Part shown: positions 13,191 to 36,367 of the stretch, piece after piece | Numbering within the stretch: position 1 is the first letter of the stretch | Layout of the letters: each line of letters begins with the position of its first letter | NCBI GenBank assembly: GCA_021463645.1 | Contig: JAJTYI010000006.1 | Location: 1 to 51,691 of the forward strand | DNA: 51,691 bases | Origin: a bacterium | GTDB taxonomy: Bacteria > Patescibacteriota > Dojkabacteria > B142 > OLB20 | Reading direction: 5' to 3' | Made by a program: the position numbers and the translations under genes | Notes under the pieces: generated by a model | Databases searched by the model: none | Seen by the model: the letters and a program-made list of their open reading frames with translations, nothing else | What the model was told of the DNA's origin: nothing

Positions 13191-13206
13191 ACAGGAAAAG
13201 GTATTT

Positions 13207-19158: not shown

Positions 19159-20140
19159 TTCCTCCAGTTCATCAAGATTTGAAGTCTTGTTAAACAGTTT
19201 TTTCTCTGTTTTCTCTTTACGGCGGAAAGAGCTTAATCAGATGGGTGTTCCGACGGAGGCCCCCAAAATGCTTGCCAGAGGGAGATATCAATTCACAGCA
19301 TATCTAAGTAATAAATCCTACTTCTTTAGAATAGCTGAATACAAAGATCTGGATGGAAATAAATATATCGCAAAAATCTGGACATCGAAGAACAAAGACA
19401 AAAATTATTACAGAATAAAAAACGAGTTGGTTGCTTACAGAACTTTTTGGGAAATACTACAATCAGAAGAATATAATAAGATTACAAAAGATTTCGATAT
19501 TTCCATTCCAAAACTTGAGTATTATGAAGAAGAAAAAACCAGGTTAGTTTTACTTTTGGAAAAGATTCCAGGTGTACCTCTCGGAGAAATACCGAATAAG
19601 GAAAGGATCAGAGTAGTGGATCAAAGCATCACTTTTTTGCAGACCCTATTTGAAAGCTCTGAAAACCCCACAAAACTTGGATTAAGAAATATAAAGCCAC
19701 TATTCTTTATATTAATGATCTTTTTGCTGATGCCACTTTCACTCGCAAAGAATCTGAAACTGGCACCCTCTTTACTCAAGCTGTATCTTTTTGTTCCACT
19801 GAGTGTTATCCCTATTTTAAAATGTAAAGAACTTTCCTTTGTTCATAGAGACTTGCATCCATGGAACATCATCAGTGTAAAAGAGAAATCGTATTTATTC
19901 GACCTTGAAATTATTTCAATTGGGCCCAAGAGTCACGACCTAGGGAATGCAATATTCAGGAGCTGGAACATGGAGGATAACGCAGCGTTGATTGAATATA
20001 TGAATAATTTAAAGACTAGTACCAATTATTATGAATTGAAATTTATGTGTATATATGGACTTGTCTATGATCTAGTTTTTAATGTGTCTGATACAATACC
20101 TCGGGCTAAAGGCTTTATCGAATATTTAAAATACTTTTAA
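19145..20140 (+). CDS. APH/choline-kinase-fold phosphotransferase with hydrophobic insert
   Basis: 331 aa. Lys motif YIAKIW, catalytic loop HRDLHPWN (19844-19867), metal-binding FDLE, and a hydrophobic insertion of about 45 aa (FFILMIFLLMPLSLA...). It overlaps the upstream gene by 14 nt. The start is uncertain because of internal Met codons at 33 and 42. Confidence 0.65.
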   Translation: MRLTNSSSSSRFEVLLNSFFSVFSLRRKELNQMGVPTEAPKMLARGRYQFTAYLSNKSYFFRIAEYKDLDGNKYIAKIWTSKNKDKNYYRIKNELVAYRTFWEILQSEEYNKITKDFDISIPKLEYYEEEKTRLVLLLEKIPGVPLGEIPNKERIRVVDQSITFLQTLFESSENPTKLGLRNIKPLFFILMIFLLMPLSLAKNLKLAPSLLKLYLFVPLSVIPILKCKELSFVHRDLHPWNIISVKEKSYLFDLEIISIGPKSHDLGNAIFRSWNMEDNAALIEYMNNLKTSTNYYELKFMCIYGLVYDLVFNVSDTIPRAKGFIEYLKYF

Positions 20141-20154
20141 ACTTTTTACTAATT

Positions 20155-21255
20155 TTGAGAATTATAATTTCCACCTACGATGATATTAAGAATCCGAATT
20201 ACGGCGGAGGTGGAGCTATTGCTTTGCATGAACTGGCAAAACGACTGTCAAAAAACTACGAAGTTAAAGTTATCAGCTGGAATCACTCCGGCGTCAAAAC
20301 TGAAAGTATTGACGGAGTTGAATACACGCGTATAGGATTCAGTTTCATTTCTCCTAAAATTGCGATGTTTCTGTTTCAAATGGTTTTACCTTTGTTTGCG
20401 ATATTTAAAAAGTTTGACCTCTGGATAGAAAGTTTCGCTCCGCCGTTCACTACTGCGTTCTTGCCGATGTTTACAAGGAAACCTGTTGTTGGAGTAGTTC
20501 ATATGCTGGCTGCAGAAGACATGAAACGAAAATACAAAGTAAATTTCAGTATAATCGAAAATGCCGGAATCAGAAGATATAAGTACATAGTTTCAACCCA
20601 GGAGATAGTTCGCGAAAAAATACTTGCTATAAACCCCAAATGCAACTGTGCTGTTATAAGCAACGGGATTGACAAGATTTATCCTGAAAAGTTCACAAAG
20701 AAAAATCAATTATTATTTCTAGGTCGCATTGAAGTTGATCAAAAAGGTCTTGATTTGCTGGTATCTGCTTTTAAAAAATTCAGCGAATTATCAAACAAAA
20801 AATATCAATTAGTAATTGCAGGTTCAGGACTTGATGCTGATATGCAGAATCTGCAACAACTTGTCAAAGAAGCCGGGCTGGGAAAGCAGATTGTTCTTGC
20901 TGGCAGAGTTGAGGGTGAAGCAAAAGCAGACTTGATGAAAGAGTCTGTCGCAATGGTTTTGACCTCACGGTTTGAAACATTTTCTATGGTTGCTTTGGAA
21001 TCGCTGGCTTTTGGTTTACCATTAATTACATTTGATATCGAAGGACTGAGATGGATTCCTGATAATGCTGTCAGGAAGGCGAAATCATTTGACACAGACG
21101 ACCTGGCAGAAAGAATGTTGGAAGTCTCGACCCATGGAGAGCTTAGAGAAACTATGCGAACCGAAGGTTTAAAATACGCAGAGAAATACACCTGGGACAA
21201 TATTGCTATATCTTATGAAAAACTTATTGAAACAATAACTAATGCCAAACACTAA
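20155..21255 (+). CDS. GT4 family glycosyltransferase
   Basis: 366 aa with a TTG start. N-terminal GGGGAIALHELAKRL and the E-x7-E motif FETFSMVALE. Confidence 0.85.
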   Translation: MRIIISTYDDIKNPNYGGGGAIALHELAKRLSKNYEVKVISWNHSGVKTESIDGVEYTRIGFSFISPKIAMFLFQMVLPLFAIFKKFDLWIESFAPPFTTAFLPMFTRKPVVGVVHMLAAEDMKRKYKVNFSIIENAGIRRYKYIVSTQEIVREKILAINPKCNCAVISNGIDKIYPEKFTKKNQLLFLGRIEVDQKGLDLLVSAFKKFSELSNKKYQLVIAGSGLDADMQNLQQLVKEAGLGKQIVLAGRVEGEAKADLMKESVAMVLTSRFETFSMVALESLAFGLPLITFDIEGLRWIPDNAVRKAKSFDTDDLAERMLEVSTHGELRETMRTEGLKYAEKYTWDNIAISYEKLIETITNAKH

Positions 21256-22018
21256 CCAATTAATCACAGAAATTCTTGCGAAAAAGCTGAGATGCGTCTT
21301 TATCTCTCCTCATCTTGACGATGCTATTTTATCGTGTGGAGGGCTGATGCAAGAACTTGCCCGTAAAACTGAGCTTACAGTGATAAATGTATTTACATCA
21401 GCGCATAGTGGCCCATACACTTTATCCGCGCGGAAATTCTTGCAGGCTTCGGGAGACTTCAGTAATGCAGCGGAACTTTATCAAGCTAGAATAGAAGAAG
21501 ATCAGCGAGCGTTATTGAAGCTCGGAGTGAATGTTACCAATCTCGGTTTAAAAGACGCATTGTTTAGAACAAAACCTAAAGAGAGTTTATTTGGCAAAAT
21601 TTTGCCGGAATTTAACCATGTTTATCCGACTTATAAATGGCACATTACTGGATCAGTTAACAAAAACGATCCGGCGTTGGCTGATCTACGCAAGCAGCTC
21701 GAAAAACTCAATCTGAAAGAAGCTGTAGTATTTGCTCCTTATGGAATCGGAAATCATGTCGATCATCAATTAGTAAGCGCTGTGAGCAGAAGTTTATTCA
21801 AAAAACTTGTTCTGTATTCTGATTTTCCATATAACATTCGATTAGATGATTATGGTTCTGAAAACGGTATGTACCGCAAGATAGAACTCACACCAAATCT
21901 TAAAGAAAAAATAAAATTGATTAAATTTTATCAAACTCAATTTACCGGATTGTTCTCTGACGGAGAAGTTCCGGGACATAAAGAAGTTTATTTTGTTAAA
22001 AAAGTCGATGGAAAATAA
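21242..22018 (+). CDS. PIG-L/LmbE family N-acetylglucosaminyl deacetylase
   Basis: 258 aa with the zinc-site motifs ISPHLDDAILSCGG and GNHVDHQ. It overlaps the GT4 gene by 14 nt. Confidence 0.85.
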   Translation: MPNTNQLITEILAKKLRCVFISPHLDDAILSCGGLMQELARKTELTVINVFTSAHSGPYTLSARKFLQASGDFSNAAELYQARIEEDQRALLKLGVNVTNLGLKDALFRTKPKESLFGKILPEFNHVYPTYKWHITGSVNKNDPALADLRKQLEKLNLKEAVVFAPYGIGNHVDHQLVSAVSRSLFKKLVLYSDFPYNIRLDDYGSENGMYRKIELTPNLKEKIKLIKFYQTQFTGLFSDGEVPGHKEVYFVKKVDGK

Positions 22019-22559
22019 TCTTATCAAAAAATTAGTTAATGAAATAAAACTCTTTCGAAAAGCGCCGAAAGAGTATATTTGGGTTTATACATATCCCAAA
22101 GACCAGAAGGTCGAAATCGGAGAATATAACCCGAGAGTGAAAAAACAAGGGCAAGACTTGATTGATGAGATAAAAAAGAAATTACCTGAATTGAAAATCC
22201 ACTTCTTAGGGTCAGTAGCGCTTGAAATCCCTGGACAAAAAGATATAGACATATTTATAGAATGTCTACCGAAAAACTTCCATAACGTGATTCCAGAGCT
22301 AAACAAAATAATTGGTCAGCCAGTTAAAAAGAGGGAACGATTTGTTGAATGGGTTTTCGAAAAGAATGATATTCCTGTGGAATTATTTCTGATAGATCCA
22401 ACTTGGCAGAAATTCTTGAATAAGCTTTCCAATTTCGAAACATTAAAGAAGAATAGACAGGCCTATACCGAATTTAAGATAAAAAATATTGGCAAGTCAA
22501 TGCGTGAGTACGAACGAAAAAAGTATGAATTTTTTTACACTGGATTAAATTTCAAATAA
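22008..22559 (+). CDS. Pol-beta superfamily nucleotidyltransferase (GrpB/KNTase-like)
   Basis: The motif G-S-x10-D-I-D (GSVALEIPGQKDIDIFIE) is the minimal NTase signature. An alternative TTG start lies at 21993. Confidence 0.55.
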   Translation: MENNLIKKLVNEIKLFRKAPKEYIWVYTYPKDQKVEIGEYNPRVKKQGQDLIDEIKKKLPELKIHFLGSVALEIPGQKDIDIFIECLPKNFHNVIPELNKIIGQPVKKRERFVEWVFEKNDIPVELFLIDPTWQKFLNKLSNFETLKKNRQAYTEFKIKNIGKSMREYERKKYEFFYTGLNFK

Positions 22560-22583
22560 ATATAACTGGAACTGCAAAACATT

Positions 22584-23618
22584 ATGTTTACAAAACTGCA
22601 TATCAAAACGAATAAACCTCATCCGAAGAAATCGGATTTTATCACTATACCGAGGGTTCTTTATGGTTATCTTTCTAATTTTGTTTTTAGAGAAAAAATA
22701 AACTTAAAGGAATTTCCGGCAATCCAAGGTTATGAACTGGTTAACCTCATTAGGATTCAAGGTGGTGCCGACCAAAACAGTGTTGGTATCTATCGAAATG
22801 AGGACGGCAAGAAGGTTATTATTAAAAGTTTGACCTATAAAAAGAATCTTCTTGCTGCGAGCCAACTTAGGCATGAAGGAGCGATGTTAGATTTACTACA
22901 AGAATATCAATATTCAGGTAAGCTGCAAGAGATACGATTTCCCAAGTTGTACGAAGTAATCAACAACCCCGATTCTATTTCTATCGTGATGGAATTTGTA
23001 GAAGGAAAGCCTATTGCCGAGCTTGACACGGTAACTAAACTAAAACTACTTGATGATTGTATTAACTGCTTCAAGCAAACAACACATGACTTACCGCAAG
23101 AAATGTTTTCTAAAATTCCAAAAAGGACAAAAACCTTTATGACTATTACTTTTTTTGTCTATTTATTATTTGCGCTCAAACAAAATTTAAAATTAACAGG
23201 ATTGTTGCTTAGTGTAGCTGTTCAATTTTATAAATATTCTGTAATTTCCCGTTTCCAGAAGACATCTTTTGTATTGACTCACAAAGCACTGCATGAGGAA
23301 AATGTTATTGTAAGCGGGCACTCGGCCACTATTATTGACCCTCAAACAGGAATATTAGCGGAAGAATTCTCAGAAATTGCAATTATCCCGAAGTTCTATT
23401 TGAAAGATACTGGTATAATTGAGATTAAGAAATTCTTACTGAAATTTTTGCATTCCGAAGACGAAGTAAAGAATTTTTTTAGATTATCGATTTATTATAC
23501 GATACAAACTTTGGCATTGACCGGTAAAGACTATCCGAAATACGAAGAAGCTAAAAAGTATCTGGAGATTTTAAACAGTACATTATTTAAAGATTTATTA
23601 AAGTCACTAAAGGCCTAA
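22584..23618 (+). CDS. APH-fold kinase paralog lacking the catalytic Asp (putative pseudokinase)
   Basis: 344 aa and collinear with the 19145 gene, including the same hydrophobic insert. The catalytic loop reads HKALHEEN (23280-23303), with Ala where HxD is expected. The downstream metal-binding Asp (IIDPQ) is retained. Confidence 0.55.
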   Translation: MFTKLHIKTNKPHPKKSDFITIPRVLYGYLSNFVFREKINLKEFPAIQGYELVNLIRIQGGADQNSVGIYRNEDGKKVIIKSLTYKKNLLAASQLRHEGAMLDLLQEYQYSGKLQEIRFPKLYEVINNPDSISIVMEFVEGKPIAELDTVTKLKLLDDCINCFKQTTHDLPQEMFSKIPKRTKTFMTITFFVYLLFALKQNLKLTGLLLSVAVQFYKYSVISRFQKTSFVLTHKALHEENVIVSGHSATIIDPQTGILAEEFSEIAIIPKFYLKDTGIIEIKKFLLKFLHSEDEVKNFFRLSIYYTIQTLALTGKDYPKYEEAKKYLEILNSTLFKDLLKSLKA

Positions 23619-23628
23619 AAACTTAATA

Positions 23629-25227
23629 ATGAAATTATCAAATACTACAATAAAAATTATAAACATCATGACCCAGGGCATACTGCTGATATTTGTAGTG
23701 GTGATAATGATGGGTTCAATCAGAGGGATTGCAGGGAATCCGACAGCAGAAGAACTAAACTCCCCGATCTGGAAAGAACAAGGTCCTTTCGAGTTGTCTC
23801 CCGAACGGGGTCGCTTTGCTTTGACATACTCTGTTTTGGAAGATCAATCTGTAATCTTTTCAATCCCTGTAGCTCGGTTTGTTACCCCTGATCTCGGTTA
23901 CACTGATGGAAACTTTGTCTCCCTATTCGCCCCCGGAGTATCATATCTTGTCATCCCAGGCTATCTGGTAGGTCAGTTTTTTGGTTTAGCTCAAGTCGGA
24001 ACTTACGCAGCGATCGGATTGTTTGCAATTATTAATTACCTCTTGATCAGATCAATAAGCCGTTCTTTAGGTGCGAATCCCTTGGCATCTGCAATTGGTG
24101 GGATGGTCTTTCTTTTTGCAACGCCTGCTTTTGCATATGGGGTTAGTCTTTATCAACATCACATTTCAACTTTTCTGATTCTGGCCGGAGTTTATCTGCT
24201 TATCAGATTTAAGAAAAGGTGGCTAGCCATGTTCTGTGTCTGGTTTTTATGTGCTTTGGGTATAGCAGTAGATAACCCCAATCTATTTATGATGTTCCCT
24301 TTGGGAGTCTTTGCATTGATGCAGGCCTTAAATATTGGAGAAACTGAAAAGAATCTAATTGTCAAAATTAACCCTAAATACTTTGTTGCGGTACTGGGAG
24401 TCGTTATACCTATTATGGGATTTATGTATTTCAACCATCTTTCCTACGGAAGTCCTTTCCAGCTTGGTGGTACAGTAAATAGTGTCGATGCTATTAATGA
24501 AGAAGGTCGACCAGTAACTTCTGAAGATATCCTAACACCGGAAGAACTTGCGCAAGCTGGAGAATTTGAAGAGGAAGACAGGTCGTCAGTCGGCTTCTTT
24601 GAAGCACGGGATATGGTAAACGGTCTTTACATCCATTTGCTGAGTCCGGATAGAGGAGTCTTGTATTTTACTCCGGTGATTCTTATAGGAGTGGTTGGGA
24701 TGTTTGTTTTGTATAAATCCAAAAATAAACATCTACCGCTATTGCTGAGTATTGTCGGTGTGAACCTTGTACTTTATTCTATGTGGGGTGACCCATGGGG
24801 AGGCTGGGCATTCGGGTCAAGGTATTTGATACCAAGTTATGCCATTATGTCGATATTCATTGCAATGGCATTAACCAGATATTCCAGAAATATTCTATTC
24901 TTGCTCGTTTTTGCTGTACTTTTTGTCTATTCAACTGCAATAAACACACTAGGAGCTATCACTACCAGTGCAATACCTCCCAAAGTACAAGCTATTCCGC
25001 TTGAAGCATTGACGGGAAAAGAAGAAAAATACAACTACAAAAGAAGCTGGGACTTCTTAAACAATAATGGCTCTAAATCATATTTCTACCAGGAATTTCT
25101 GAAAGATAGTGTTCCAGCAAAAGATTTTTATATCACTCTTGTGTCAGCGATATCCACAGTATCAATGATGACATTAATCGGAGTCTATTTAACAAAAAGA
25201 AAAACTAAAGATGAAAATAAAGATTGA
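23629..25227 (+). CDS. polytopic membrane protein, GT-C-like putative glycosyltransferase
   Basis: 532 aa with about 12 TM helices. The first extracytoplasmic loop carries acidic residues (ELSPERG, LEDQ), followed by a long loop and a C-terminal TM. It sits in an operon with the glycan genes. Confidence 0.45.
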   Translation: MKLSNTTIKIINIMTQGILLIFVVVIMMGSIRGIAGNPTAEELNSPIWKEQGPFELSPERGRFALTYSVLEDQSVIFSIPVARFVTPDLGYTDGNFVSLFAPGVSYLVIPGYLVGQFFGLAQVGTYAAIGLFAIINYLLIRSISRSLGANPLASAIGGMVFLFATPAFAYGVSLYQHHISTFLILAGVYLLIRFKKRWLAMFCVWFLCALGIAVDNPNLFMMFPLGVFALMQALNIGETEKNLIVKINPKYFVAVLGVVIPIMGFMYFNHLSYGSPFQLGGTVNSVDAINEEGRPVTSEDILTPEELAQAGEFEEEDRSSVGFFEARDMVNGLYIHLLSPDRGVLYFTPVILIGVVGMFVLYKSKNKHLPLLLSIVGVNLVLYSMWGDPWGGWAFGSRYLIPSYAIMSIFIAMALTRYSRNILFLLVFAVLFVYSTAINTLGAITTSAIPPKVQAIPLEALTGKEEKYNYKRSWDFLNNNGSKSYFYQEFLKDSVPAKDFYITLVSAISTVSMMTLIGVYLTKRKTKDENKD

Positions 25228-26815
25228 AAAAGCAAAAATTAACAATTTAACTCGTTTCCTAGAGAAGTACGCGCTAACGTTAATTGTATTAACTCTGATT
25301 CTAGTAGCAACTGCTACTTGGTATGGGTTCTATCAAAATGGATTAGGGCTCGCATACAACGACGCTCGCTCACATCTAAACATCGGTAGACGTGTGGTTG
25401 AAGGTTTGAAACCAGGCTTAGCACAGATTGGATCTGTTTGGTTACCTTTGCCTCATTTACTGATGGTACCTACCATCTGGAATGACTTCTTCTGGCATTC
25501 AGGACTCTCTGGAGCAATTCAATCTATGGGATCATTTGTCATTACGGGTGTTCTTGTTTACTTATATCTGAAAAAACTAGGAGCCTCAATATTTGCACGA
25601 TTCTTTGGTGTAGCATTATTTGCTCTAAATTTAAATGTATTGTATCTGCAATCTACCGCAATGACCGAGCTTCTTTTGATTGCTACCATGACTGCTGGTT
25701 CGTATTACTTGTTGTTGTGGGCGCAAAAGGAAAATATAGTTGATCTCTTAAAGTGTTCTCTATTTATAATGCTTTCCACTCTAATCCGCTATGATGGCTG
25801 GTTCTTGATTTTCATAGCTACTTTGATTGTGGCATTCCAAATATTTCGCAAGAAAGGCTACAAAGCGACAGAAGGAATGTCAATCATGTTTATGTCTCTT
25901 GGTGGTCTGGGTATTGCGCTTTGGGTGTTATGGAACTTATTAATTTTCGGAGATCCGTTATTTTTTGCTTTTGGTCCATTTTCAGCACATTCTCAGCAGG
26001 AACAGTTATTAGCAGCAGGGAATCTCCCTACAAAGGGCGATATACTACTCTCAATCAAAATGTATCTATATGCCCTATTTTTCAATTCTTATACATTACC
26101 GGCGATTCTAGGGCTATTTGGAGGTATAAGTCTATGGTTTAACAAGAAAATTAATATAAATGCTCGAATTGCCACCCTGGCTTTGATTGCTCCATTTATT
26201 TTCAACATTTTAGCACTTTACCTTGGTCACTCAGTTTTGTTTATTCAAGGGATTTCCGGAGATACTTGGTTCAATGTCCGCTATGGAGTCATGCTTGCCC
26301 CTTCTATTGCCATTTTCGTGGCATATTTAACTGATAAAGTGAAACCAATGAGATTCGTTATAGTGGGTCTTTCTTTGCTGGTTCTGACATTTGCTTTTCT
26401 AAACCAAGATGCTGTAACAATTGATGATGCACGAGTTGGCTCTAGTCAGAAAAATGTTTCCGAAGTATCCGACTGGCTAGCTGATAATGCAGGAGACAAA
26501 GAAGGCTTTATTCTAATTTCTGCTGCCTCTCATGATGCTATAATCTTTTCGTCAGGAATGGATATGAGTAGATTTATCCATGAAGGAACAGGACTTTACT
26601 GGGATACTGCTCTCGGGAACCCTGACCATTGGGCTAGATGGATAGTAATGAGAACCCATGACGAAAATGATTTAGTATTCAGAGAAATCAACAAAGAAGC
26701 ATGGGAAGATCATTACACACTTGTAGATCATTATCCTTTTGCAGATATCTACGAACTAAAACCAGATTCAATGACTAATTTAAACACAGAACCTGTTCTT
26801 AAGAATGTGAAATAA
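25211..26815 (+). CDS. GT-C fold (ArnT/PMT-like) membrane glycosyltransferase, putative
   Basis: 534 aa. It has 11-13 TM helices, a first-loop YNDARSH motif and a soluble C-terminal domain of about 130 aa. It overlaps the upstream gene by 17 nt. Confidence 0.5.
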   Translation: MKIKIEKAKINNLTRFLEKYALTLIVLTLILVATATWYGFYQNGLGLAYNDARSHLNIGRRVVEGLKPGLAQIGSVWLPLPHLLMVPTIWNDFFWHSGLSGAIQSMGSFVITGVLVYLYLKKLGASIFARFFGVALFALNLNVLYLQSTAMTELLLIATMTAGSYYLLLWAQKENIVDLLKCSLFIMLSTLIRYDGWFLIFIATLIVAFQIFRKKGYKATEGMSIMFMSLGGLGIALWVLWNLLIFGDPLFFAFGPFSAHSQQEQLLAAGNLPTKGDILLSIKMYLYALFFNSYTLPAILGLFGGISLWFNKKININARIATLALIAPFIFNILALYLGHSVLFIQGISGDTWFNVRYGVMLAPSIAIFVAYLTDKVKPMRFVIVGLSLLVLTFAFLNQDAVTIDDARVGSSQKNVSEVSDWLADNAGDKEGFILISAASHDAIIFSSGMDMSRFIHEGTGLYWDTALGNPDHWARWIVMRTHDENDLVFREINKEAWEDHYTLVDHYPFADIYELKPDSMTNLNTEPVLKNVK

Positions 26816-27826
26816 ATGATGGATTTTATTGAAAAGCTAAGAAGACTTAGCCTCAAACAAATTATATCTGGGCTTTTAATAGCAAGTTTAATTTCTTTAC
26901 TAGTTTATCTCTACATTTCATCGGTGCAAGGTCCAAATAAACCAGCTAATCTCTGGGAAGTTCAATCTATTGACACTATGAAATTTTCCAGAGACTTAGC
27001 TAGAGAAAAACTACTCGATAATACATTTGATGATGAGATTGATCATCAAGTTCGAAATATCAAAGAAATGGGTGCAACTCACGTCGCAGTTGGAACACCT
27101 TATGATGAAGAATTTGTACCCTATATTTCAAGATGGGTGAATATTGCACGAAAACATCGACTAAAAGTATGGTTTCGTGGGAACTTCTCTGGGTGGGAAC
27201 AATGGTTTGACTACGAGGAGATAACTCCAGAAAAACATCAGGAGCTAATTGAAACATTCATTATTAATAATCCACAACTTTTCCAGGATGGAGACATTTT
27301 CTCACCATGTACTGAATGTGAAAATGGAGTATTGGGAGACCCGAGACTCACTGGTAATGTCAATGACTATAAAATATTCTTAGTCGAAGAATATGATATA
27401 GCCAATACCGCATTCGATAGAATTGAAAAAGACGTTACAGTAAATTTCCCAATGAACGGAGATGTCGCAGAATTAATTATGGACAAACGGATGACTCAAA
27501 ATCTGGGAGGAGTAGTCGTCGTGGATCATTACGTCGAAAGACCGGAACAATTAGCAGAAGACGTAAGACATTATGCAAAATTAAGCGGGGGCAAAGTAAT
27601 CCTAGGCGAAATAGGTGTTTATATTCCTGGAATCCATCCCCAAATGAATGATTTCGAACAGGCAGACTGGCTTGAACAAGCTTTAACCCTGCTTGCAGAA
27701 GAGGAAGACCTTGCAGGTATTAATTATTGGGTATTTAGCGATGGTACAACACAACTATGGGAAAAAGATACTCGTGTGAAAAGGAAAGCAGCTGATGTTC
27801 TACAAAATTTCTATAAACCCAAGTAG
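26816..27826 (+). CDS. membrane-anchored protein, possible clan GH-A-like (TIM barrel) glycoside hydrolase
   Basis: 336 aa. N-terminal TM, a candidate acid/base ECENG and a candidate nucleophile LGEIG. The start codon abuts the upstream stop. Confidence 0.3.
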   Translation: MMDFIEKLRRLSLKQIISGLLIASLISLLVYLYISSVQGPNKPANLWEVQSIDTMKFSRDLAREKLLDNTFDDEIDHQVRNIKEMGATHVAVGTPYDEEFVPYISRWVNIARKHRLKVWFRGNFSGWEQWFDYEEITPEKHQELIETFIINNPQLFQDGDIFSPCTECENGVLGDPRLTGNVNDYKIFLVEEYDIANTAFDRIEKDVTVNFPMNGDVAELIMDKRMTQNLGGVVVVDHYVERPEQLAEDVRHYAKLSGGKVILGEIGVYIPGIHPQMNDFEQADWLEQALTLLAEEEDLAGINYWVFSDGTTQLWEKDTRVKRKAADVLQNFYKPK

Positions 27827-27907
27827 GGAGACATTTTTGGCAAAATTTGATAAAATCATGCACTAGGTAAAGGAATTACTATATTAGTACATATTTTTTA
27901 AAGCATT

Positions 27908-28975
27908 ATGAAAATAATAATTTTCGCTGGAGGGCATGGTACTCGATTATGGCCACTCAGTCGTAAAAACTCCCCTAAACAATTCGAGAAAATGTTTAAC
28001 GGTAAATCTACTCTACAATTGATGGTAGATAGGGTTAAACCCGTTGTTGGCATTGAGAACGTATATATCTCAACCGGTAGCGCTTTCAAAGAAATTATTG
28101 AAAGTCAGCTCACGGAACTTCCCAGGGAAAATATCATCTACGAACCAGCAAAAAGAGATCTCGCCGCTGCAGTTGGTCTTGCTTTTCTAACATTAAAACA
28201 AAAAGGTGTGAACGAGCCTGTAGCAATATTATGGTCTGATCATCTGGTTGAAAATCTATCTGAATTTCAAAATGCATTAAGAACAGGTGAGCAACTTATC
28301 AATGAAAATCCAAACAGATTTATCTTTAACGGAGAAATACCTAGATTTGCAAATAATAATTTAGGTTGGATTAGTATCGGAGACACAATTGAAAATAAAA
28401 ATGGATTTGATGTCCATAGTTTTGAAGGTTGGATTTACAGACCTGATGTCGAATTATGCAATCAATTATTCGAATCAAAAAGAGCAGTCTGGAACACTGG
28501 ATATTTTGTTACTTCCGTCGATTTTGTAACAGGCTTGTATGAACAGCATATGCCTGAAATGTATTCTCAACTTCAACAAGTAGTTTCCAGCCCTGAACTT
28601 TTGGATTCTATCTACCCGACAATTGAATCTATACATTTTGACGAAGCAATAGTACAAAAATCACGTCCCGATCAAGCTGTCGTATTGACTTTTGACATAG
28701 GATGGAGTGATCCTGGAACACTTTACGCCCTTAAAGAGGCCATAGTAGCTAATAAGAACGATAATTATATCCATGGTAAAGCAGTATCACTGGCTACTTC
28801 AGATTCTATGATCTTTAATCAACAACAGAATAAATTAGTCGCAACTATCGGACTAGACGGATTTGTAGTAGTAAATACAGAAGATGCTGTTTTCGTATGT
28901 CACAAGGACAATATTAGAGAGATAACACAGTTATTAAAACAAATTGAAGCAGAAGGATACTCGGAGTACCTATAA
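27908..28975 (+). CDS. manC: mannose-1-phosphate guanylyltransferase-like sugar nucleotidyltransferase
   Basis: 355 aa with N-terminal IIIFAGGHGTRLWPLSRKNSPKQF, typical of ManC/CpsB. Confidence 0.8.
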   Translation: MKIIIFAGGHGTRLWPLSRKNSPKQFEKMFNGKSTLQLMVDRVKPVVGIENVYISTGSAFKEIIESQLTELPRENIIYEPAKRDLAAAVGLAFLTLKQKGVNEPVAILWSDHLVENLSEFQNALRTGEQLINENPNRFIFNGEIPRFANNNLGWISIGDTIENKNGFDVHSFEGWIYRPDVELCNQLFESKRAVWNTGYFVTSVDFVTGLYEQHMPEMYSQLQQVVSSPELLDSIYPTIESIHFDEAIVQKSRPDQAVVLTFDIGWSDPGTLYALKEAIVANKNDNYIHGKAVSLATSDSMIFNQQQNKLVATIGLDGFVVVNTEDAVFVCHKDNIREITQLLKQIEAEGYSEYL

Positions 28976-29024: not shown

Positions 29025-30305
29025 TTGGCCCAGAAAGCAATCCGTGAGTACTACGGAAAAAAATTGATTTTTCAGTATCTGCCAGAATTCTTAACCAGCT
29101 TCAGTCAAGGCTATAAAGGGGTAGAAATTGATTCTAAACAGTTAAATCAAATTAATAAACTTCCAAATTTCAAATATGGTTATGTTGCAAAGCCAGACGA
29201 GCTTTTTGGCAAGAGAGGAAAGAACAATCTCGTATTTATTAATACTGATCAGAAAAAAGTATTAAACTGGATAAAATCAAAATCATCAGTAAAAACCGTT
29301 ATCAAACAAAATGAAAAAGAACTCTCTGGGAGTTTAAGAAGATTTATTTTAGAACCTTTCATCCCTCACGACGAAGAATATTACTTAGCTATTAAAACTG
29401 AAAGATTAGTAGATAAATTATATTTTTCCACCTCAGGAGGCGTAGAGGTTGAAGATAATTGGGAGAAAGTTACCGGTATAGATATCCCATTTAGCCTTGA
29501 TAACTCACCTATTCACTCCTACGTTTCGAATACGATTGGCAAACTCATCAAAGATAAACAAGAAAGCACTCTATTAGCTGATTTCGTTTCTGCAATTTAC
29601 CAGGTTTTTAAATTACTGGATTTTTCATATCTTGAGATTAATCCTTTTGTAATTAATGATGGAGAGATCCATTTACTTGATTTTGTTGCCAGAATGGATA
29701 ACACAGCAGTATACAAAAACAGAAAACTATATGAAGTAATAGGGGAACCAGAATTCGCTCCACCATTTGGTAGTGAAATGCCAGAATCAGAAACTAAAAT
29801 TATTGAGATGGACGAAAGCTCTGGCGCATCTTTGAAATATAAGCTAATAAATCCAGATGGGAAAATTTGGCTTCTAACTTCCGGAGGAGGAGGAAGCGTG
29901 ATTTTTGCAGATACGGTTGGAGATTTGGGCTATCATTCAGAAATTGCAAATTACACTGATTATAGTGGAAACCCCAATACAGATGAAACTCAGGAGTTTT
30001 GTGAAATTATATTCTCCGATATGTTTAAAAGTAATAGAAAAGATAAAGTGTTAATTGTCGGAGGGGGAATAGCCAATTTTACAGATATTGCAAAAACGTT
30101 CACGGGGGTAGCTAGAGCAATAGAAAAACATCATAAACAATTCAATCAGCAGAAAATCAGAATTTTCGTACGTAGGGGAGGACCAAATTATAAAAGAGGG
30201 CTTGAATTCATGAAAAGTATGGCTGAAAAATATAATATAGAGATAACAGTACATGGTCCCGAGATGTATATGACAGAGGTGGTCAGATTGGCACTAGAAA
30301 CTTAA
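29025..30305 (+). CDS. aclB: ATP-citrate lyase, ATP-grasp/citrate-binding subunit (AclB type)
   Basis: 426 aa. TTG start with an AGGA sequence 8 nt upstream. It is collinear with the N-terminal part of eukaryotic ACLY as I recall it. Matching blocks are VAKPDELFGKRGK, FILEPFIPH, YLEINPF, SGASLKYKLINPDGKIWLLTSGGGGSV, IANYTDYSGNP, GGGIANFTD and IFVRRGGPNY. Confidence 0.9.
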   Translation: MAQKAIREYYGKKLIFQYLPEFLTSFSQGYKGVEIDSKQLNQINKLPNFKYGYVAKPDELFGKRGKNNLVFINTDQKKVLNWIKSKSSVKTVIKQNEKELSGSLRRFILEPFIPHDEEYYLAIKTERLVDKLYFSTSGGVEVEDNWEKVTGIDIPFSLDNSPIHSYVSNTIGKLIKDKQESTLLADFVSAIYQVFKLLDFSYLEINPFVINDGEIHLLDFVARMDNTAVYKNRKLYEVIGEPEFAPPFGSEMPESETKIIEMDESSGASLKYKLINPDGKIWLLTSGGGGSVIFADTVGDLGYHSEIANYTDYSGNPNTDETQEFCEIIFSDMFKSNRKDKVLIVGGGIANFTDIAKTFTGVARAIEKHHKQFNQQKIRIFVRRGGPNYKRGLEFMKSMAEKYNIEITVHGPEMYMTEVVRLALET

Positions 30306-30315
30306 ATTTATAAAT

Positions 30316-32133
30316 TTGAAAATGCAGGAACTATTTACGAAAAATACTAAAGTAATCTTTTATAATGAACATCCTGTGCCTATTCAAGCAATGCTCGATT
30401 ATGATTGGATTTGCGCGAAATCAGAACCCTGTGTTTCAGCAATTATAAATCCAAAGAAATCGGGCTTCCACAAGACTTTTTTCGGACCAAAGGAGATACT
30501 CATACCAGTTTTCAAGACGCTGGAAGAGGCCGTCCGATATGATCCAAAAGCAGATGTGTTAATCAATTTTGCTTCAGTAAGAAGTAGTTTTGAAAGCACT
30601 AAAGTTGCGCTAGAAGCTCCAAATATACGGACTGTGGTTTTGGTAGCGGAAGGAATCCCCGAAAATCAGACAAGAGAACTTATTAGACTAGCCAAGGAAA
30701 ACAAGAAATGGATAATAGGACCTTCAACAGTTGGAGCAATCAAAGCGGGTGCGATTCGAGTAGGATATAGTGGTGGAAGTAGTGAAAACATCATCGAAAG
30801 CAAACTTTACCAACCTGGAAGTGTAGGAGTGGTGACAGTTTCAGGAGGAATGTCGAATGAGGTTTATAGCATAGTGAATAACAATACTGACGGTGTGAAC
30901 GAAGGTGTGGCGATAGGAGGTGACACTTATCCTGGATCAACACTTTTAGAGAATGTCATGAGATTACACGACAATCCTGAGATTAAAATGTTGGTAGTTT
31001 TAGGAGAAATCGGAGGCACCGATGAATACGAAATTGCAGATGCAATTAAATCAGGAAAAATCAATAAGCCAGTTGTGGCATGGGTGAGTGGGACTGTTGC
31101 AGAATTATTCCCAACTGAGGTTCAATTTGGTCACGCAGGCGCGAGATCAGGTAGTCGTAAAGTATCAGCAGTAGCGAAGAACAAGGCACTTAAAGACGCC
31201 GGGGCATACATTCCCAAGTCATTCAATCAATTTGGCTATTTAATTAAAAAGGTTTTTGATGATGAAGTCCGAAAGAAAAAAGACTATATACCTCCTACTC
31301 AAGTAACTCCTCAAATCCCCGCTCTTGACTTTGAAAGCGCAATTCGAGATGGATTGATTAGGAGAAGAACTTCGATAGTATCTGGAATCAGTGACGATAG
31401 GGGAGACAAACTAACCTACAATGGCGTTGATATTGATAAAATCGTTGATAAACCACTATCTTACACGATAAATGCACTTTGGTTTGAAAATCGACTGGAT
31501 GAAACAGGTATGGATTTTCTTGAATTGTGCTTGAAACTAACTGCAGATCACGGACCAGCAGTTGTAACAGCACATAACGCAATTACTACAGCTAGAGCTG
31601 GTAAGGACTTGGTTTCTTCTGTAGTTTCTGGACTCTTAACAATTGGACCGAGACATGGTGGAGCAATTAATGATGCAGCAAAATGGCAGTTCGAATGTAT
31701 CACCAATCAAATTGATTCAGCAGATTTTGTAAAGGAGATGAATTCTAAAGGGGAATTAATTATGGGAATAGGGCATAGAATCAAATCTATTCAAAATCCA
31801 GATGAGAGAGTTCAACTAATTAAGAAATTTGCTAAAAAAAATCTAAAACAGACAGAACATTTGGAATTTGCTTTAGAAGTGGAGAACGAAACTACGAAGA
31901 AAAAGAACAACTTGATCCTGAATGTCGATGGAGCAATCGGAGCAGTTTTCTTGGACATTTTAAAGTCCAATAAATATGAGGATGAAGAAATTTTGGAACT
32001 GATTGAAATGGAATTATTTAATGCGATATTTTTACTAGGTAGAACAATAGGAATCATAGGACATGTATTAGACCAGAAAAGAATGAAGGAGCCGCTTTAC
32101 AGGCACCCTTGGGACGATATTTTGTATAAGTAA
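30316..32133 (+). CDS. aclA: ATP-citrate lyase, CoA-binding/citryl-CoA lyase subunit (AclA type)
   Basis: 605 aa. Phospho-His loop VQFGHAGA (His codon at 31132-31134). Other blocks are SGGMSNE, VAIGGDTYPGS, VVLGEIGGTDE and TADHGPAV, plus a citrate-synthase-like C-terminus LDQKRMKEPLYRHPWDDI. An alternative ATG start lies at 30322. Confidence 0.9.
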   Translation: MKMQELFTKNTKVIFYNEHPVPIQAMLDYDWICAKSEPCVSAIINPKKSGFHKTFFGPKEILIPVFKTLEEAVRYDPKADVLINFASVRSSFESTKVALEAPNIRTVVLVAEGIPENQTRELIRLAKENKKWIIGPSTVGAIKAGAIRVGYSGGSSENIIESKLYQPGSVGVVTVSGGMSNEVYSIVNNNTDGVNEGVAIGGDTYPGSTLLENVMRLHDNPEIKMLVVLGEIGGTDEYEIADAIKSGKINKPVVAWVSGTVAELFPTEVQFGHAGARSGSRKVSAVAKNKALKDAGAYIPKSFNQFGYLIKKVFDDEVRKKKDYIPPTQVTPQIPALDFESAIRDGLIRRRTSIVSGISDDRGDKLTYNGVDIDKIVDKPLSYTINALWFENRLDETGMDFLELCLKLTADHGPAVVTAHNAITTARAGKDLVSSVVSGLLTIGPRHGGAINDAAKWQFECITNQIDSADFVKEMNSKGELIMGIGHRIKSIQNPDERVQLIKKFAKKNLKQTEHLEFALEVENETTKKKNNLILNVDGAIGAVFLDILKSNKYEDEEILELIEMELFNAIFLLGRTIGIIGHVLDQKRMKEPLYRHPWDDILYK

Positions 32134-32178: not shown

Positions 32179-33177
32179 ATGAACATACTATTAACAGGCG
32201 GAGCAGGGTATATCGGATCACATTGCACATTGGAACTGATAAAACGAGGTCATAAGGTAACAGTTCTGGACAATCTCGAGCGAGGTCACCAAGAAACTCT
32301 AGACACAATCAAGCAACAAGGAGGGGAGTTTGAATTTTTGAAACTCGACCTACGAAACCTTGAGGAGCTTCGAAACGGACTAAGAGACAGGCAATTTGAT
32401 GCAGTAATACACTTTGCCGCTTATATTGACGTAGGAGAATCAGTCAGAGAACCTGCAAAGTATTTTGAGAATAATGTAGTAGGTAGCCAATATTTATTCC
32501 AGATACTTTTAGAAAATAAAGTAAATAATGTAATTTTCTCTTCAAGTGCTGCAGTTTATGGGACACAAGAAATCGTTCCAATTCCAGAAACCGCAGAAAA
32601 GCATCCTGACAGCCCTTATGGGGAAACGAAGTTATTGATGGAAATGATTCTTGAAAACTATTGCCAATATTCAGGTATGAACGCCGTGGCTTTGAGATAT
32701 TTCAATCCATCTGGAGCAGAAGGGAACATAGGGGAGAGGCATTACCCAGAAACTCATGCAGTTCCTCGAGTATTAAAAGCATTGATGGATGATAAGTTCA
32801 CATTCGGTGTTTTTGGATCTGATTACAACACTCCAGATGGTAGTTGCATCCGAGACTTCATCCATATTCAAGATTTAGTAGATGCCCATATCGCCTGTAT
32901 AGATTTTTTGAACAATAACAAAGGTTTCCATGCATTTAATGTAGCTACTGGTAAAGGCACAAGTGTTTTAGAGCTAATAAATACAGCAGAGGAGGTTTCT
33001 GGTAGAAAATTAAACTATAAAATTCAACCAAGACGTGAAGGCGATCCAGCACAACTTGTTGCAGACCCCACGAAAATCAGCTCAGAGATTGGCTGGAAAG
33101 CTAAATTTGATATCAAAGACATCCTCAAGTCAGCTTGGGAGTTTGAACAAAAACGTCCTATGAGTGATTATCAATGA
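32179..33177 (+). CDS. galE: UDP-glucose 4-epimerase
   Basis: 332 aa with TGGAGYIGSH, SSSAAVYG and the YGETK catalytic Tyr/Lys. Confidence 0.9.
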   Translation: MNILLTGGAGYIGSHCTLELIKRGHKVTVLDNLERGHQETLDTIKQQGGEFEFLKLDLRNLEELRNGLRDRQFDAVIHFAAYIDVGESVREPAKYFENNVVGSQYLFQILLENKVNNVIFSSSAAVYGTQEIVPIPETAEKHPDSPYGETKLLMEMILENYCQYSGMNAVALRYFNPSGAEGNIGERHYPETHAVPRVLKALMDDKFTFGVFGSDYNTPDGSCIRDFIHIQDLVDAHIACIDFLNNNKGFHAFNVATGKGTSVLELINTAEEVSGRKLNYKIQPRREGDPAQLVADPTKISSEIGWKAKFDIKDILKSAWEFEQKRPMSDYQ

Positions 33178-33367: not shown

Positions 33368-33484
33368 GTATAAATTAATAAGGGAAATGAATTTCGCTAA
33401 ACAAATTAACAATACTTATCATTGGAATAAACTACTTCACGTGGCGGATTTTCCTATTTAAATAAATATTCAATCAATTTATTA

Positions 33485-33505
33485 CCGCCGAAAGGCGGTT
33501 TTTTT
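33485..33505 (+). terminator. intrinsic terminator/attenuator (GAAA tetraloop + U7)
   Basis: CCGCC (33485-33489), GAAA loop, GGCGG (33494-33498), then TTTTTTT (33499-33505). It lies 17 nt upstream of the ATG at 33523. Confidence 0.6.
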
Positions 33506-33522
33506 GTTATTAAAAAACTAAC

Positions 33523-34746: not shown

Positions 34747-35829
34747 ATGAAAATAGGAATAGATTTATCCCCCGTAGAGAAAGATCCAGCCGGTATAGGC
34801 CAATATTCACTTAGCCTGTTCACTGAATTATGCAAGATTGATAAAAAGAACACATATATCGTTTACACCACTGCCCCATTTCTGTTCGCAAATACAAAAA
34901 ACAAAGTAATCAAAGTCAATAAAAAATTACCAGCCTATGGTAGTCGTTGGATGAAATCAGTTGCGGAAGATGCGAAAAAGGAAGAATTGGATTTATTCAT
35001 CTCCCCTTCTAATCATCTTTTCACAAAGCTATTTCCCAAAACTATTCAGTATGTACATGATTTGGCACCCATCAAATTTCCAAAATTCTTTGGACGACGA
35101 GCATCTCTGAAATACAAAGCCACACTCAAACTTGCCACTTCAAAAGCACTACAAATTTTAACTATCAGCCAGTCAGTGAAAGAGGAAATCATCCATGATT
35201 ACCCGAAGACAAAAGGAAAAATTAACTTTATCTATCCTGGCCTAAATAAATGGATTGAGCTCGAGAACAAAGATCCTAATGCAATTATGGATAAATATGC
35301 CATTGATTATGACTACATTCTTACCTTGAGCACACTTGAACCTCGAAAGAACCATATTAATATGATTAAAGCATTCCATTTATTCAAAAAATCCACTAAC
35401 TCACCACTGAAATTCGCAATTATTGGCAAGAAGGGTTGGTTCTTTGATGAGATTTTCAAAATCGTTGCAGACCTCAACCTAGAGACCGAGGTTAAGTTCC
35501 TAGGCTATGTACCTAATCAAGAACTCAACCCAATTATAAAGAAAGCAAAAGCATTTATGTTCATGAGCTTTTATGAAGGATTCGGTATTCCTCCCATCGA
35601 GGCATTAAGTCTAAATGTGAAAACACTTGTTTCCGATATCCCAATCTTCCATGAAGCTTTTCAGGACAAAGTCGTGTATACAGATCCCTATTCACCTGAT
35701 AAAATAGCCCTTGCAATACAAAAGATCCTGGAACGAAATTACCAAAATACAGAGAAGTTCGTAGAGGATCGATATAGCTGGGAAAAGTCAGCGCACAAAC
35801 TATTATCGATTATTAATGAGTATAGATAA
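34747..35829 (+). CDS. GT4 family glycosyltransferase
   Basis: 360 aa with the E-x7-E motif YEGFGIPPIEA and KIGIDLSP at the N-terminus. Confidence 0.85.
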   Translation: MKIGIDLSPVEKDPAGIGQYSLSLFTELCKIDKKNTYIVYTTAPFLFANTKNKVIKVNKKLPAYGSRWMKSVAEDAKKEELDLFISPSNHLFTKLFPKTIQYVHDLAPIKFPKFFGRRASLKYKATLKLATSKALQILTISQSVKEEIIHDYPKTKGKINFIYPGLNKWIELENKDPNAIMDKYAIDYDYILTLSTLEPRKNHINMIKAFHLFKKSTNSPLKFAIIGKKGWFFDEIFKIVADLNLETEVKFLGYVPNQELNPIIKKAKAFMFMSFYEGFGIPPIEALSLNVKTLVSDIPIFHEAFQDKVVYTDPYSPDKIALAIQKILERNYQNTEKFVEDRYSWEKSAHKLLSIINEYR

Positions 35830-36367
35830 AAAAATATTAAAACAGTTTACCAAAGACGCAATTCGGAACCCCCTCTCTGTTTTTAAATACAGCTTTTTTA
35901 GATATATATTAATCGGAGTTTTAACGGTATTTGTGGGATTTGGAATTTTTAATTTCATTTCACTTACATCTGATATTCACGGAGGAGCTGCAAACTTCAT
36001 AGCAACCTTAATTTCATTAATATTTAATTTTTCCATGTCATACGCCTGGACTTTCAAGGTTCAGGGTAAACAAAAGATTAGAAGTCTTACAAGATACTCT
36101 ATGCTTGCAGCCTTTAATCTAAGTTTCGAGACATTCTCCATGTATGGTTTCATAGAGTTACTTGAGTCTAGATTAATCAACTTTTTGCTAGATAGCCCAA
36201 ACGTTGTAAAGGCTGTAGACTTCATATTAGTCGAGCTGGACTTTTATGAAGGAACCCAGGAAGGACTTATGCAGGCAATATTGCGAAACTTACTTAAAGT
36301 GATTGCGTTATTAATGATCATTTCTTGGAATTTTGTACTCTATAAGAGATGGGTTTTTAGGAAGTAA
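35816..36367 (+). CDS. GtrA-like membrane protein
   Basis: 183 aa with four TM helices and an N-terminal FFRYILIGVLTVFVGFGIF typical of the GtrA family. It overlaps the GT4 gene by 14 nt. Confidence 0.65.
   Translation: MSIDKKILKQFTKDAIRNPLSVFKYSFFRYILIGVLTVFVGFGIFNFISLTSDIHGGAANFIATLISLIFNFSMSYAWTFKVQGKQKIRSLTRYSMLAAFNLSFETFSMYGFIELLESRLINFLLDSPNVVKAVDFILVELDFYEGTQEGLMQAILRNLLKVIALLMIISWNFVLYKRWVFRK

Follow-up and report, generated by a model that had tools for sequence, protein, structure and literature searches.

ATP-citrate lyase (ACL) is the classical marker enzyme of the reverse tricarboxylic acid (rTCA) cycle. In the methanogenic archaeon M. concilii (PDB 6HXI, 6ZNW) the enzyme is encoded by two genes, one for a chain with ATP-grasp and citrate-binding domains and one for an alpha chain with a fused lyase module. 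Human ACLY (PDB 6HXH, 6POE, 6UUZ) carries the same blocks in a single chain and cleaves citrate outside any cycle to provide acetyl-CoA, which is presumably also the role of the enzyme discussed here. A gene pair of this kind, aclB and aclA, is described from a 51,691-nucleotide stretch of bacterial DNA (GenBank assembly GCA_021463645.1, contig JAJTYI010000006.1), which is called the window below.

Other enzymes share parts of this architecture. Chlorobium limicola AclBA (PDB 6HXJ) has the same domain organisation as the window pair and the same order of genes, aclB then aclA. Citryl-CoA synthetase (CCS) and citryl-CoA lyase (CCL) of Hydrogenobacter (CcsAB and Ccl; PDB 6HXQ, 6HXP) and succinyl-CoA synthetase (SCS) have in common with it the acyl-CoA synthetase (NDP-forming) superfold and the phospho-histidine mechanism.

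An ACL has also been reported from the Candidate Phyla Radiation (CPR). The closed genome of a Gracilibacterium (BD1-5) encodes a two-subunit enzyme with a GHAGA motif, an enzyme 'rarely detected in CPR' (Sieber et al. 2019, PMC6851277). Its proteins are closest to archaeal ones, from which lateral transfer was inferred. Imported citrate was proposed to be split into acetyl-CoA and oxaloacetate, and citrate transporters were listed (PMC6851277). The idea that an ACL cleaves scavenged citrate in a CPR bacterium is thus already published. It also tempers the first-pass annotation of the window, made from its letters, which had regarded ACL as unexpected in reduced-genome bacteria. Given the Gracilibacterium precedent (PMC6851277), that surprise was overstated. 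For Dojkabacteria, the group to which the window belongs, no paper on ACL was found; PMC10811913, PMC9868632 and PMC7038595 are unrelated co-mentions.

Like the Gracilibacterium enzyme, the window pair has two subunits, belongs to a reduced CPR genome and is archaea-like. Unlike it, the pair comes from another CPR phylum, and its window shows none of the citrate transporters that the Gracilibacterium report lists. A nucleotide-sugar operon, in turn, is described for Dojkabacteria only. The explanation favoured here, to which a probability of roughly 0.7 is given as a whole, is that the pair is an ACLY-type ACL, acquired once, probably from an archaeon, housed in a manC-galE operon and used to cleave scavenged citrate outside any cycle. 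As an enzyme it is conventional; what is unusual is its conserved placement alone. Apparently new are the ACL clade of Dojkabacteria, which is monophyletic, and the fixed place of the genes within a nucleotide-sugar operon.

Family and active sites of the gene pair

The gene aclB occupies positions 29025..30305 of the plus strand. Its predicted product of 426 amino acids (aa) is the beta subunit, with an ATP-grasp and a citrate-binding domain. It is followed on the same strand by aclA (30322..32133, 603 aa), which encodes the alpha subunit, with a CoA-binding domain, a CoA-ligase domain bearing the phospho-histidine loop, and a C-terminal lyase module. Neither gene has an internal stop or a truncation. 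Translation of aclB is predicted to begin at a TTG with an AGGA 8 nt upstream. The MAQ start position is kept across orthologues while the codon varies: it is TTG in the window, in locus L005 and in one Asgard locus, GTG in L008 and L017, and ATG in the other loci compared. For aclA, the list of open reading frames (ORFs) offers a TTG at 30316, which would give 605 aa. Annotated relatives are 603 aa long and begin MQELF, which favours the ATG at 30322.

The first-pass annotation took the two ORFs for the collinear halves of eukaryotic ACLY. End-to-end alignments and Pfam domains bear this out, and the profile searches that it had proposed as a check place ACL-specific families above their cutoffs. 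AclB matches Citrate_synth_N with 193.8 bits (cutoff 83) and Citrate_bind with 222.3 bits (cutoff 26.8); AclA matches Ligase_CoA with 59.7 bits and the C-terminal domain Citrate_synt with 97.9 bits. When the proteins are searched against all PDB sequences, residues 4-604 of AclA align with residues 490-1093 of human ACLY (652 bits), at an identity of about 50%. The score of AclA against M. concilii ACLY-B is 640 bits, and residues 351-604 match the human citrate synthase homology (CSH) module (6HXK) with 269 bits. The top PDB match of AclB is M. concilii ACLY-A, with residues 1-425 aligned to 1-418 (342 bits); the score against human ACLY 1-419 is 275 bits. By comparison, the Chlorobium enzyme is far more distant, at 334 bits for AclA and 139 bits for AclB. 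The pair differs from human ACLY in being two chains and in missing the regulatory linker of about 70 residues (420-489) with its phosphorylation sites.

A relative of SCS or citryl-CoA synthetase without lyase activity would share the same superfold, and two features of public annotation could be read in its favour. Neither protein passes any ACL model of NCBIfam, which returns only sub-threshold SCS, CCL and citrate synthase models. NCBI records also disagree on the name of AclA, which is 'citrate/2-methylcitrate synthase' in some (HRN85901.1, HLD04063.1) and 'ATP citrate synthase' in others (MCA9380337.1, MCA9385155.1). The former label probably arises because no NCBIfam ACL model passes; public annotation of the AclA family is in any case inconsistent. 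The window proteins themselves argue strongly the other way. Citrate_bind and Citrate_synth_N, both specific to ACL, lie well above their Pfam cutoffs. In the CCS/CCL system the lyase is a separate protein of about 260 aa, whereas here it is fused to the alpha subunit within the 603-aa AclA and keeps the equivalents of human H900, H975 and D1026. AclA scores at most 102 bits against SCS-alpha, 83 against the CCS small subunit, 62 against CCL and at most 46 against citrate synthases, and AclB scores 71 against the CCS large subunit; ACLY scores are 6- to 10-fold above those of CCS, CCL and SCS. In the family test for AclB, the further PDB comparison gives at most 40 bits. An SCS or CCS/CCL identity is effectively refuted by the domains, the fused lyase module and the score ratios.

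The active sites point in the same direction. The codon for the catalytic phospho-histidine, CAC, is read directly at 31132..31134 on the plus strand. It encodes His271 of AclA, which the human alignment equates with His760, and lies within EVQFGHAGA. This loop and the motif LDQKR...LYRHPWDDI had both been picked out in the first-pass annotation, and both are where it put them. The AclA equivalents of human E599, H760, H900, H975, D1026, R1065 and R1085 are kept and are invariant in 16 clade members, among which the equivalent of R976 is R or K. In AclB, residues G309, N346, T348 and R379 (human numbering), which we take from the human ACLY-citrate structure to form the citrate site, are identical in 12 Dojkabacteria and 3 archaeal orthologues, as are the ATP-grasp residues K58, R66 and E118. 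The window pair is therefore not only collinear with human ACLY block for block but also identical to it at the catalytic and citrate-site residues. The ratio of nonsynonymous to synonymous substitution rates (dN/dS) for both subunits is 0.13-0.15 against the orthologue whose AclA is 97% identical and about 0.04 against the one at 89%.

The pair combines the beta-subunit domains, the phospho-histidine loop of the alpha subunit, a fused lyase module and full-length collinearity with characterised ACL. It is predicted on these grounds to be a functional heteromeric ACL (EC 2.3.3.8) of the archaeal and eukaryote-like (ACLY) type, and its sequence places it in the M. concilii/eukaryote-like branch of the ACL family, not in the Chlorobium branch.

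Host and descent of the genes

The host is a member of Candidatus Dojkabacteria (WS6), a CPR group with genome sizes of 0.6-1.2 Mb. Relatives of AclA that carry this label are 97% (P0001), 87% (P0008), 62% (P0030) and 57% (P0049) identical to the window protein. A scan of GTDB species representatives with an alignment of 16 AclA sequences as query recovered nine Dojkabacteria-type genomes with AclA 57-87% identical, among them the closed 1.17 Mb chromosome CP129475.1, on which the operon lies at roughly 803-825 kb. A Dojkabacteria-type ACL operon is also present in two metagenome-assembled genomes (MAGs) labelled 'uncultured Candidatus Saccharibacteria' (L011, CAZZFI010000020.1; L012, CAYQRB010000004.1). 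Both sequences nest inside the Dojkabacteria AclA clade, with the same synteny.

The nearest relatives outside Dojkabacteria are archaeal and the top PDB match of AclA is human ACLY, which would suit a chimeric assembly or a contaminant from an archaeon or eukaryote. The evidence on the other side is such that this can be excluded in practice. A comparison of composition across the segment, one of the checks proposed at the outset, finds it native: the tetranucleotide correlation of the ACL segment with the whole window is 0.963, in the 87th percentile of sliding windows, in codon usage the two genes (correlations 0.92 and 0.91) rank near the top of the window, and GC content, overall and at third codon positions, is typical. 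The junctions of manC, aclB, aclA and galE recur in five or more assemblies made independently (ENA, Logan, JGI, NCBI), on contigs of 216-620 kb, the 620 kb contig being the one that carries HRN85901.1, and on a closed chromosome. Moreover, the identity of AclA to archaeal and eukaryotic sequences does not go beyond about 50-55%. Contamination or chimerism is effectively refuted by the native composition and the independent assemblies. The ACL genes are now fully ameliorated in Dojkabacteria.

Outside Dojkabacteria, the best GTDB relatives of AclA are 51-55% identical. Most of the groups represented are archaeal, namely Thermoplasmata, Promethearchaeota, Hodarchaeota, Hermodarchaeota (Asgard), Micrarchaeota, Altiarchaeota, Aenigmatarchaeota, Bathyarchaeota and Methanosarcinales; the others include a few Anaerolineae, Deltaproteobacteria, TA06 and more. 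From 54 AclA sequences a neighbour-joining tree was built, rooted on human ACLY and given 200 bootstraps. It draws on sequences other than those of Gracilibacteria and of the Chlorobium, Nitrospira and Campylobacterota outgroup, so that placement in the family is a matter of bit-score ratios together with this tree. The Dojkabacteria sequences are monophyletic in 200/200 bootstraps and nested among archaeal sequences. Their sister group includes a Methanosarcinales sequence in about 158 of the 200 replicates, and a Methanosarcinales MAG sequence is the commonest sister, in agreement with M. concilii as the top PDB match of AclB. A relative of the Methanosarcinales type (L083) is about 54% identical to the window in AclA and about 39% in AclB.

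Identity of AclA within the Dojkabacteria clade averages 63%, with a minimum of 55%, and the depth of the clade equals the divergence across all other sampled archaeal and bacterial sequences. A single clade nested among archaeal sequences suggests that the genes were transferred once, long ago, into the ancestor of a Dojkabacteria subclade and have since descended vertically; the donor was probably an archaeon. Among the 80 best GTDB relatives of Dojkabacteria AclA there is no Gracilibacteria sequence; the two CPR groups therefore probably acquired their ACL separately.

Some matches to AclA of about 1,020-1,040 aa (P0017-P0029) were considered as AclB-AclA fusions, a reading that was rejected. 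They are AclA proteins in which the CoA-ligase and citrate-synthase-homology region is duplicated in tandem, query residues ~167-602 matching twice, and they group with human ACLY in neighbour-joining trees. In P0017, the EVQFGHAGA loop is intact in the first copy, whose lyase motifs are degenerate (TADRDP, GIGHCTY, no LYRHPWDD); the second has a degenerate histidine loop (TKFGHMLV) and intact lyase motifs.

The nucleotide-sugar neighbourhood

In the window, aclB and aclA lie between genes for nucleotide-sugar metabolism, as the first-pass annotation had described; ORFs, Pfam and TIGR01179 agree on the order. Upstream is a manC-like gene (27908..28975, plus strand) for a sugar-1-phosphate nucleotidylyltransferase of the mannose-1-phosphate guanylyltransferase type, identified by the Pfam families NTP_transferase and ManC_GMP_beta-helix. 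It has no phosphomannose isomerase (PMI) domain: its match to NCBIfam GMP_PMI, 199 bits and below cutoff, spans the N-terminal 352/467 positions. Downstream is galE, for UDP-glucose 4-epimerase (32179..33177, plus strand; TIGR01179, 384.9 bits, cutoff 262.3). The gaps between the four genes are 49, 16 and 45 nt.

This arrangement was followed by tblastn of the window proteins against 89 loci. A ManC homologue lies 5' of aclB in 15/15 Dojkabacteria loci that reach that far, and galE lies 3' of aclA in 14 Dojkabacteria loci; in L008 and L009, rmlA takes the place of galE after aclA. Among archaeal and other bacterial loci, by contrast, 0/71 have a ManC or GalE homologue within 10 kb of ACL, so the embedding separates the Dojkabacteria pair from its M. 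concilii-type relatives. The first-pass annotation had allowed for a placement by chance. That possibility did not hold up: the position is not accidental, being kept as manC-aclB-aclA throughout the clade and absent from relatives outside Dojkabacteria.

The wider order in many loci is AAK-YjeF-hyp257-ApbE-manC-aclB-aclA-galE-GT4-GtrA-GT4-hyp133-GT2-rmlC-rmlD, where GT denotes glycosyltransferase families. The core of manC and aclBA survives rearrangement of its flanks. For instance, ATP synthase genes lie upstream of it in L007, and in L008 SbcCD-like genes lie upstream and ribosomal genes downstream.

Several signals bear on transcription. In relatives, aclB and aclA overlap by 1-4 nt, and in the closed genome L014 at most 18 nt separate five genes. 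An intrinsic-terminator-like hairpin with a run of seven T (ACCGCC-GAAA-GGCGGT, consensus scan) follows galE at 33484..33509 on the plus strand and is the only one on that strand between 26500 and 35000; it is the likely end of a manC-aclBA-galE unit. A promoter-like site with a TG extension (GAGACA-17-TAAAAT, consensus scan) lies just 5' of manC at 27828..27856, plus strand, and might be the start of this unit; such sites are not enriched over shuffled sequence, which makes it weak evidence. Given the tight or overlapping spacing and the single terminator-like site after galE, manC, aclB, aclA and galE probably form one transcript. Membership in such an operon suggests co-regulation with nucleotide-sugar synthesis, short of proving a dedicated link, and an association that spans the lineage favours some functional or regulatory coupling.

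Deeper branches interleave further genes with this core. A protein of about 306-313 aa lies between manC and aclB in four loci (L014:7801-8721, L064:7792-8718, L015:2114-3049, L016:570-1511). These proteins are 52-57% identical to each other and have no Pfam or PDB match. In three loci a HAD_2-family hydrolase splits aclB from aclA (L008:9346-9993, L016:2810-3490, L015:6406-7068); its NCBIfam matches, to PpaX or phosphoglycolate-phosphatase-like models, are weak. The window has no homologue of either protein. The gap between aclB and aclA in L015 also holds minus-strand ORFs of 132 and 92 aa, which might be a toxin-antitoxin pair.

Upstream of the core, a conserved block on the plus strand (12417..14100) encodes a 257-aa hypothetical protein and an ApbE FMN transferase, the latter identified by Pfam and the block by synteny with L003, L005, L007, L008, L014 and L064. 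The hypothetical protein is always paired with ApbE, and Pfam finds in it a weak Cohesin match in L008 only. In relatives the block directly abuts manC. Two loci show additions: L064 has a second, truncated ApbE-like ORF, and both L014 and L064 have a CofD/YvcK-family gene between ApbE and manC.

In the window, ApbE and manC are separated by a variable glycan island of about 13.4 kb (14401..27826, plus strand), delimited by Pfam and locus comparison. It encodes a 1585-aa protein with several glycosyltransferase domains, an APH-like protein, GT4, PIG-L, GrpB and four proteins of unknown function. The 1585-aa ORF (14401-19158) is unusually large, with two GT2-type domains (~6-163 and ~343-621) and a C-terminal GT4 domain (~1211-1543). 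L003, L005, L007 and L008 have no such island here, and L001 and L012 share part of it. Identities to the window are discordant between ManC and AclA: they are 81% and 68% in L012, and 65% and 89% in L003. This suggests that the island has recombined or been exchanged together with manC between Dojkabacteria, the breakpoint falling between manC and aclB.

Downstream, synteny and Pfam define a conserved GT4 glycosyltransferase and GtrA-like flippase component (34747..36367, plus strand), and the conserved block runs on through a further GT4 (36826-39039, minus strand), GT2 and rmlC/rmlD. Between the terminator-like hairpin and this block lies a class I/II aminotransferase (33523-34530; hisC/CobD-like, with 213 bits short of the TIGR01141 cutoff). 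All other loci are without it, including L001, whose AclA is 97% identical, which marks it as a strain-specific insertion.

The remaining content of the window was surveyed over 44 non-nested ORFs of at least 100 aa; 10 antisense ORFs nested in longer ones were left out. Envelope-glycan genes dominate: GT2, GT4, PIG-L, GtrA, rmlA/B/C/D and UDP-glucose dehydrogenase. Scans for tRNA and Rfam families gave no matches. The only protein of the major facilitator superfamily is an unassigned one encoded at 3288-4478. Pfam also finds a GNAT acetyltransferase (421-921) and the island's PIG-L (21242-22018). No clear acetyl-CoA-dependent glycan enzyme lies closer to ACL than a hexapeptide sugar N-acetyltransferase of the NeuD/PglB/VioB type (48913..49605, plus strand; TIGR03570, 139 bits, cutoff 160.8), about 17 kb away. 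The 3' end of this acetyltransferase gene is overlapped on the opposite strand by a beta-keto acid cleavage enzyme (BKACE; 49585-50433, minus strand; Pfam 284 bits, Kce-like 253 bits and below cutoff). BKACE is acetyl-CoA-dependent and unexpected beside glycan genes in a reduced genome.

Possible fates of citrate and acetyl-CoA

By homology to solved ACLY, AclB would bind ATP and citrate. His271 of AclA would be phosphorylated and hand its phosphate to citrate, and attack by CoA would then give citryl-CoA. The citrate-synthase-homology module, through His410, His485 and Asp536, would split citryl-CoA into acetyl-CoA and oxaloacetate. With citrate taken from a host or the environment, both products could be supplied outside any cycle. 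The acetyl-CoA could go to acetylation of envelope and glycans, including UDP-N-acetylglucosamine (UDP-GlcNAc), to acetate and ATP, or to both.

WS6 genomes are reported to have no complete TCA cycle, respiratory complexes or upper glycolysis, and to keep the route from 3-phosphoglycerate through pyruvate to acetate and ATP (Wrighton et al. 2016, PMC5113843).

The role for which ACL is best known, citrate cleavage in an rTCA cycle, would make this an ordinary autotrophy gene pair. Beyond that reputation little supports it here, and it is very unlikely, with hardly any chance of being right, because WS6 genomes reportedly have no complete TCA cycle. The first-pass annotation saw no other TCA or rTCA gene in the window, and the Pfam scan of the other 42 ORFs agrees, having found no such family; 2-oxoglutarate:ferredoxin oxidoreductase, fumarate reductase, aconitase, isocitrate dehydrogenase, malate dehydrogenase and fumarase are all missing from the 44 scanned ORFs. 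The genomes are small (0.6-1.2 Mb), and no complete TCA cycle or electron transport chain is reported for them (PMC5113843). In sequence the enzyme groups with the M. concilii/human type and not with that of Chlorobium, whose complete reverse cycle Dojkabacteria reportedly do not have. Citrate is accordingly likely to be cleaved outside an rTCA cycle.

The reaction might also run the other way, forming citrate from acetyl-CoA and oxaloacetate with a gain of ATP. It is near equilibrium, and ACL reportedly runs in this citrate-forming, ATP-yielding direction in Desulfobacter postgatei (Moller, Schauder, Fuchs and Thauer, 1987). Neither a source of oxaloacetate nor a use or export route for citrate is evident in the window, and it is not obvious why a bacterium that has no TCA cycle would need citrate. 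There is at best a slim chance of such a role.

Fermentation of citrate is easier to imagine. Oxaloacetate would be decarboxylated to pyruvate, which would be oxidised to a second acetyl-CoA, and both acetyl-CoA would end as acetate with a net yield of about 1 ATP per citrate; the operon position would then be historical. The reported retention of pyruvate-to-acetate and ATP steps in WS6, with TCA cycle and upper glycolysis missing, agrees with this, and similar citrate scavenging, minus the acetate and ATP step, was proposed for Gracilibacterium (PMC6851277). It also fits that the gene pair entered an already syntenic block by transfer. Against these points, the window has no oxaloacetate decarboxylase, malic enzyme, pyruvate:ferredoxin oxidoreductase, Pta/AckA or citrate transporter, and a historical position leaves unexplained why manC-aclBA survives amid rearranged flanks in L007 and L008. 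Fermentation is possible, with the odds against it.

The first-pass annotation had instead proposed that the enzyme is a dedicated provider of the acetyl-CoA with which envelope glycans are N- or O-acetylated, a eukaryote-like use. Its observation that the pair lies in a co-directional glycan array with glycosyltransferases and PIG-L is confirmed by Pfam and NCBIfam, and the case has further support. Nucleotide-sugar genes flank ACL in every Dojkabacteria locus, with manC on one side and galE, or rmlA in L008 and L009, on the other. Deep branches interleave a HAD phosphatase-like gene and a gene of unknown function with ACL, and the window itself has the NeuD/PglB/VioB-type acetyltransferase, GNAT and the PIG-L deacetylase. 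The comparison of loci, however, weakens the proposal. No conserved acetyltransferase was found near ACL across the compared loci, and in no other locus do homologues of the NeuD-like protein, GNAT or BKACE lie within 10 kb of ACL. The island with PIG-L is a variable insertion, and ManC and GalE use no acetyl-CoA themselves. In addition, the pyruvate-to-acetate route of WS6 implies another source of acetyl-CoA, at least in some members, so that ACL need not be that source. A dedicated acetylation role is rather doubtful.

A bolder version is that ACL was recruited into an envelope operon of the form manC-(unknown)-aclB-(HAD)-aclA-galE/rmlA, with host citrate as a dedicated source of acetyl groups for glycans and peptidoglycan precursors. 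This is unlikely. If true, acetyl supply and sugar activation would be co-regulated, in parallel to the eukaryotic link from ACLY to acetyl-CoA and on to UDP-GlcNAc and acetylation, and citrate would be a specific host-derived nutrient of these episymbionts.

The explanation favoured here, that an archaea-derived ACLY-type enzyme cleaves scavenged citrate outside any cycle, leaves the fate of acetyl-CoA between these uses. Four points weigh against it. No citrate transporter was recognised among the scanned ORFs of the window. Part of the linkage between ACL and sugar genes may be inherited synteny, because gene order is kept for about 15 kb on each side. The branches of Dojkabacteria and Methanosarcinales are long, which makes the archaeal donor tentative, and the phylogeny of ACL is a neighbour-joining one throughout.

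With these genes, Dojkabacteria become the second CPR phylum with ACL, beside the single published case in Gracilibacteria. ACL also joins the archaea-like genes already known from WS6, namely form II/III and III-like RubisCO and the AMP salvage pathway. The position of aclBA between nucleotide-sugar genes offers a lead on a possible coupling of acetyl-CoA supply to envelope glycan synthesis. CPR bacteria presumably live on metabolites drawn from their hosts, and an intact, strongly conserved ACL in Dojkabacteria, which are reportedly without a complete TCA cycle, points to citrate as one of them.

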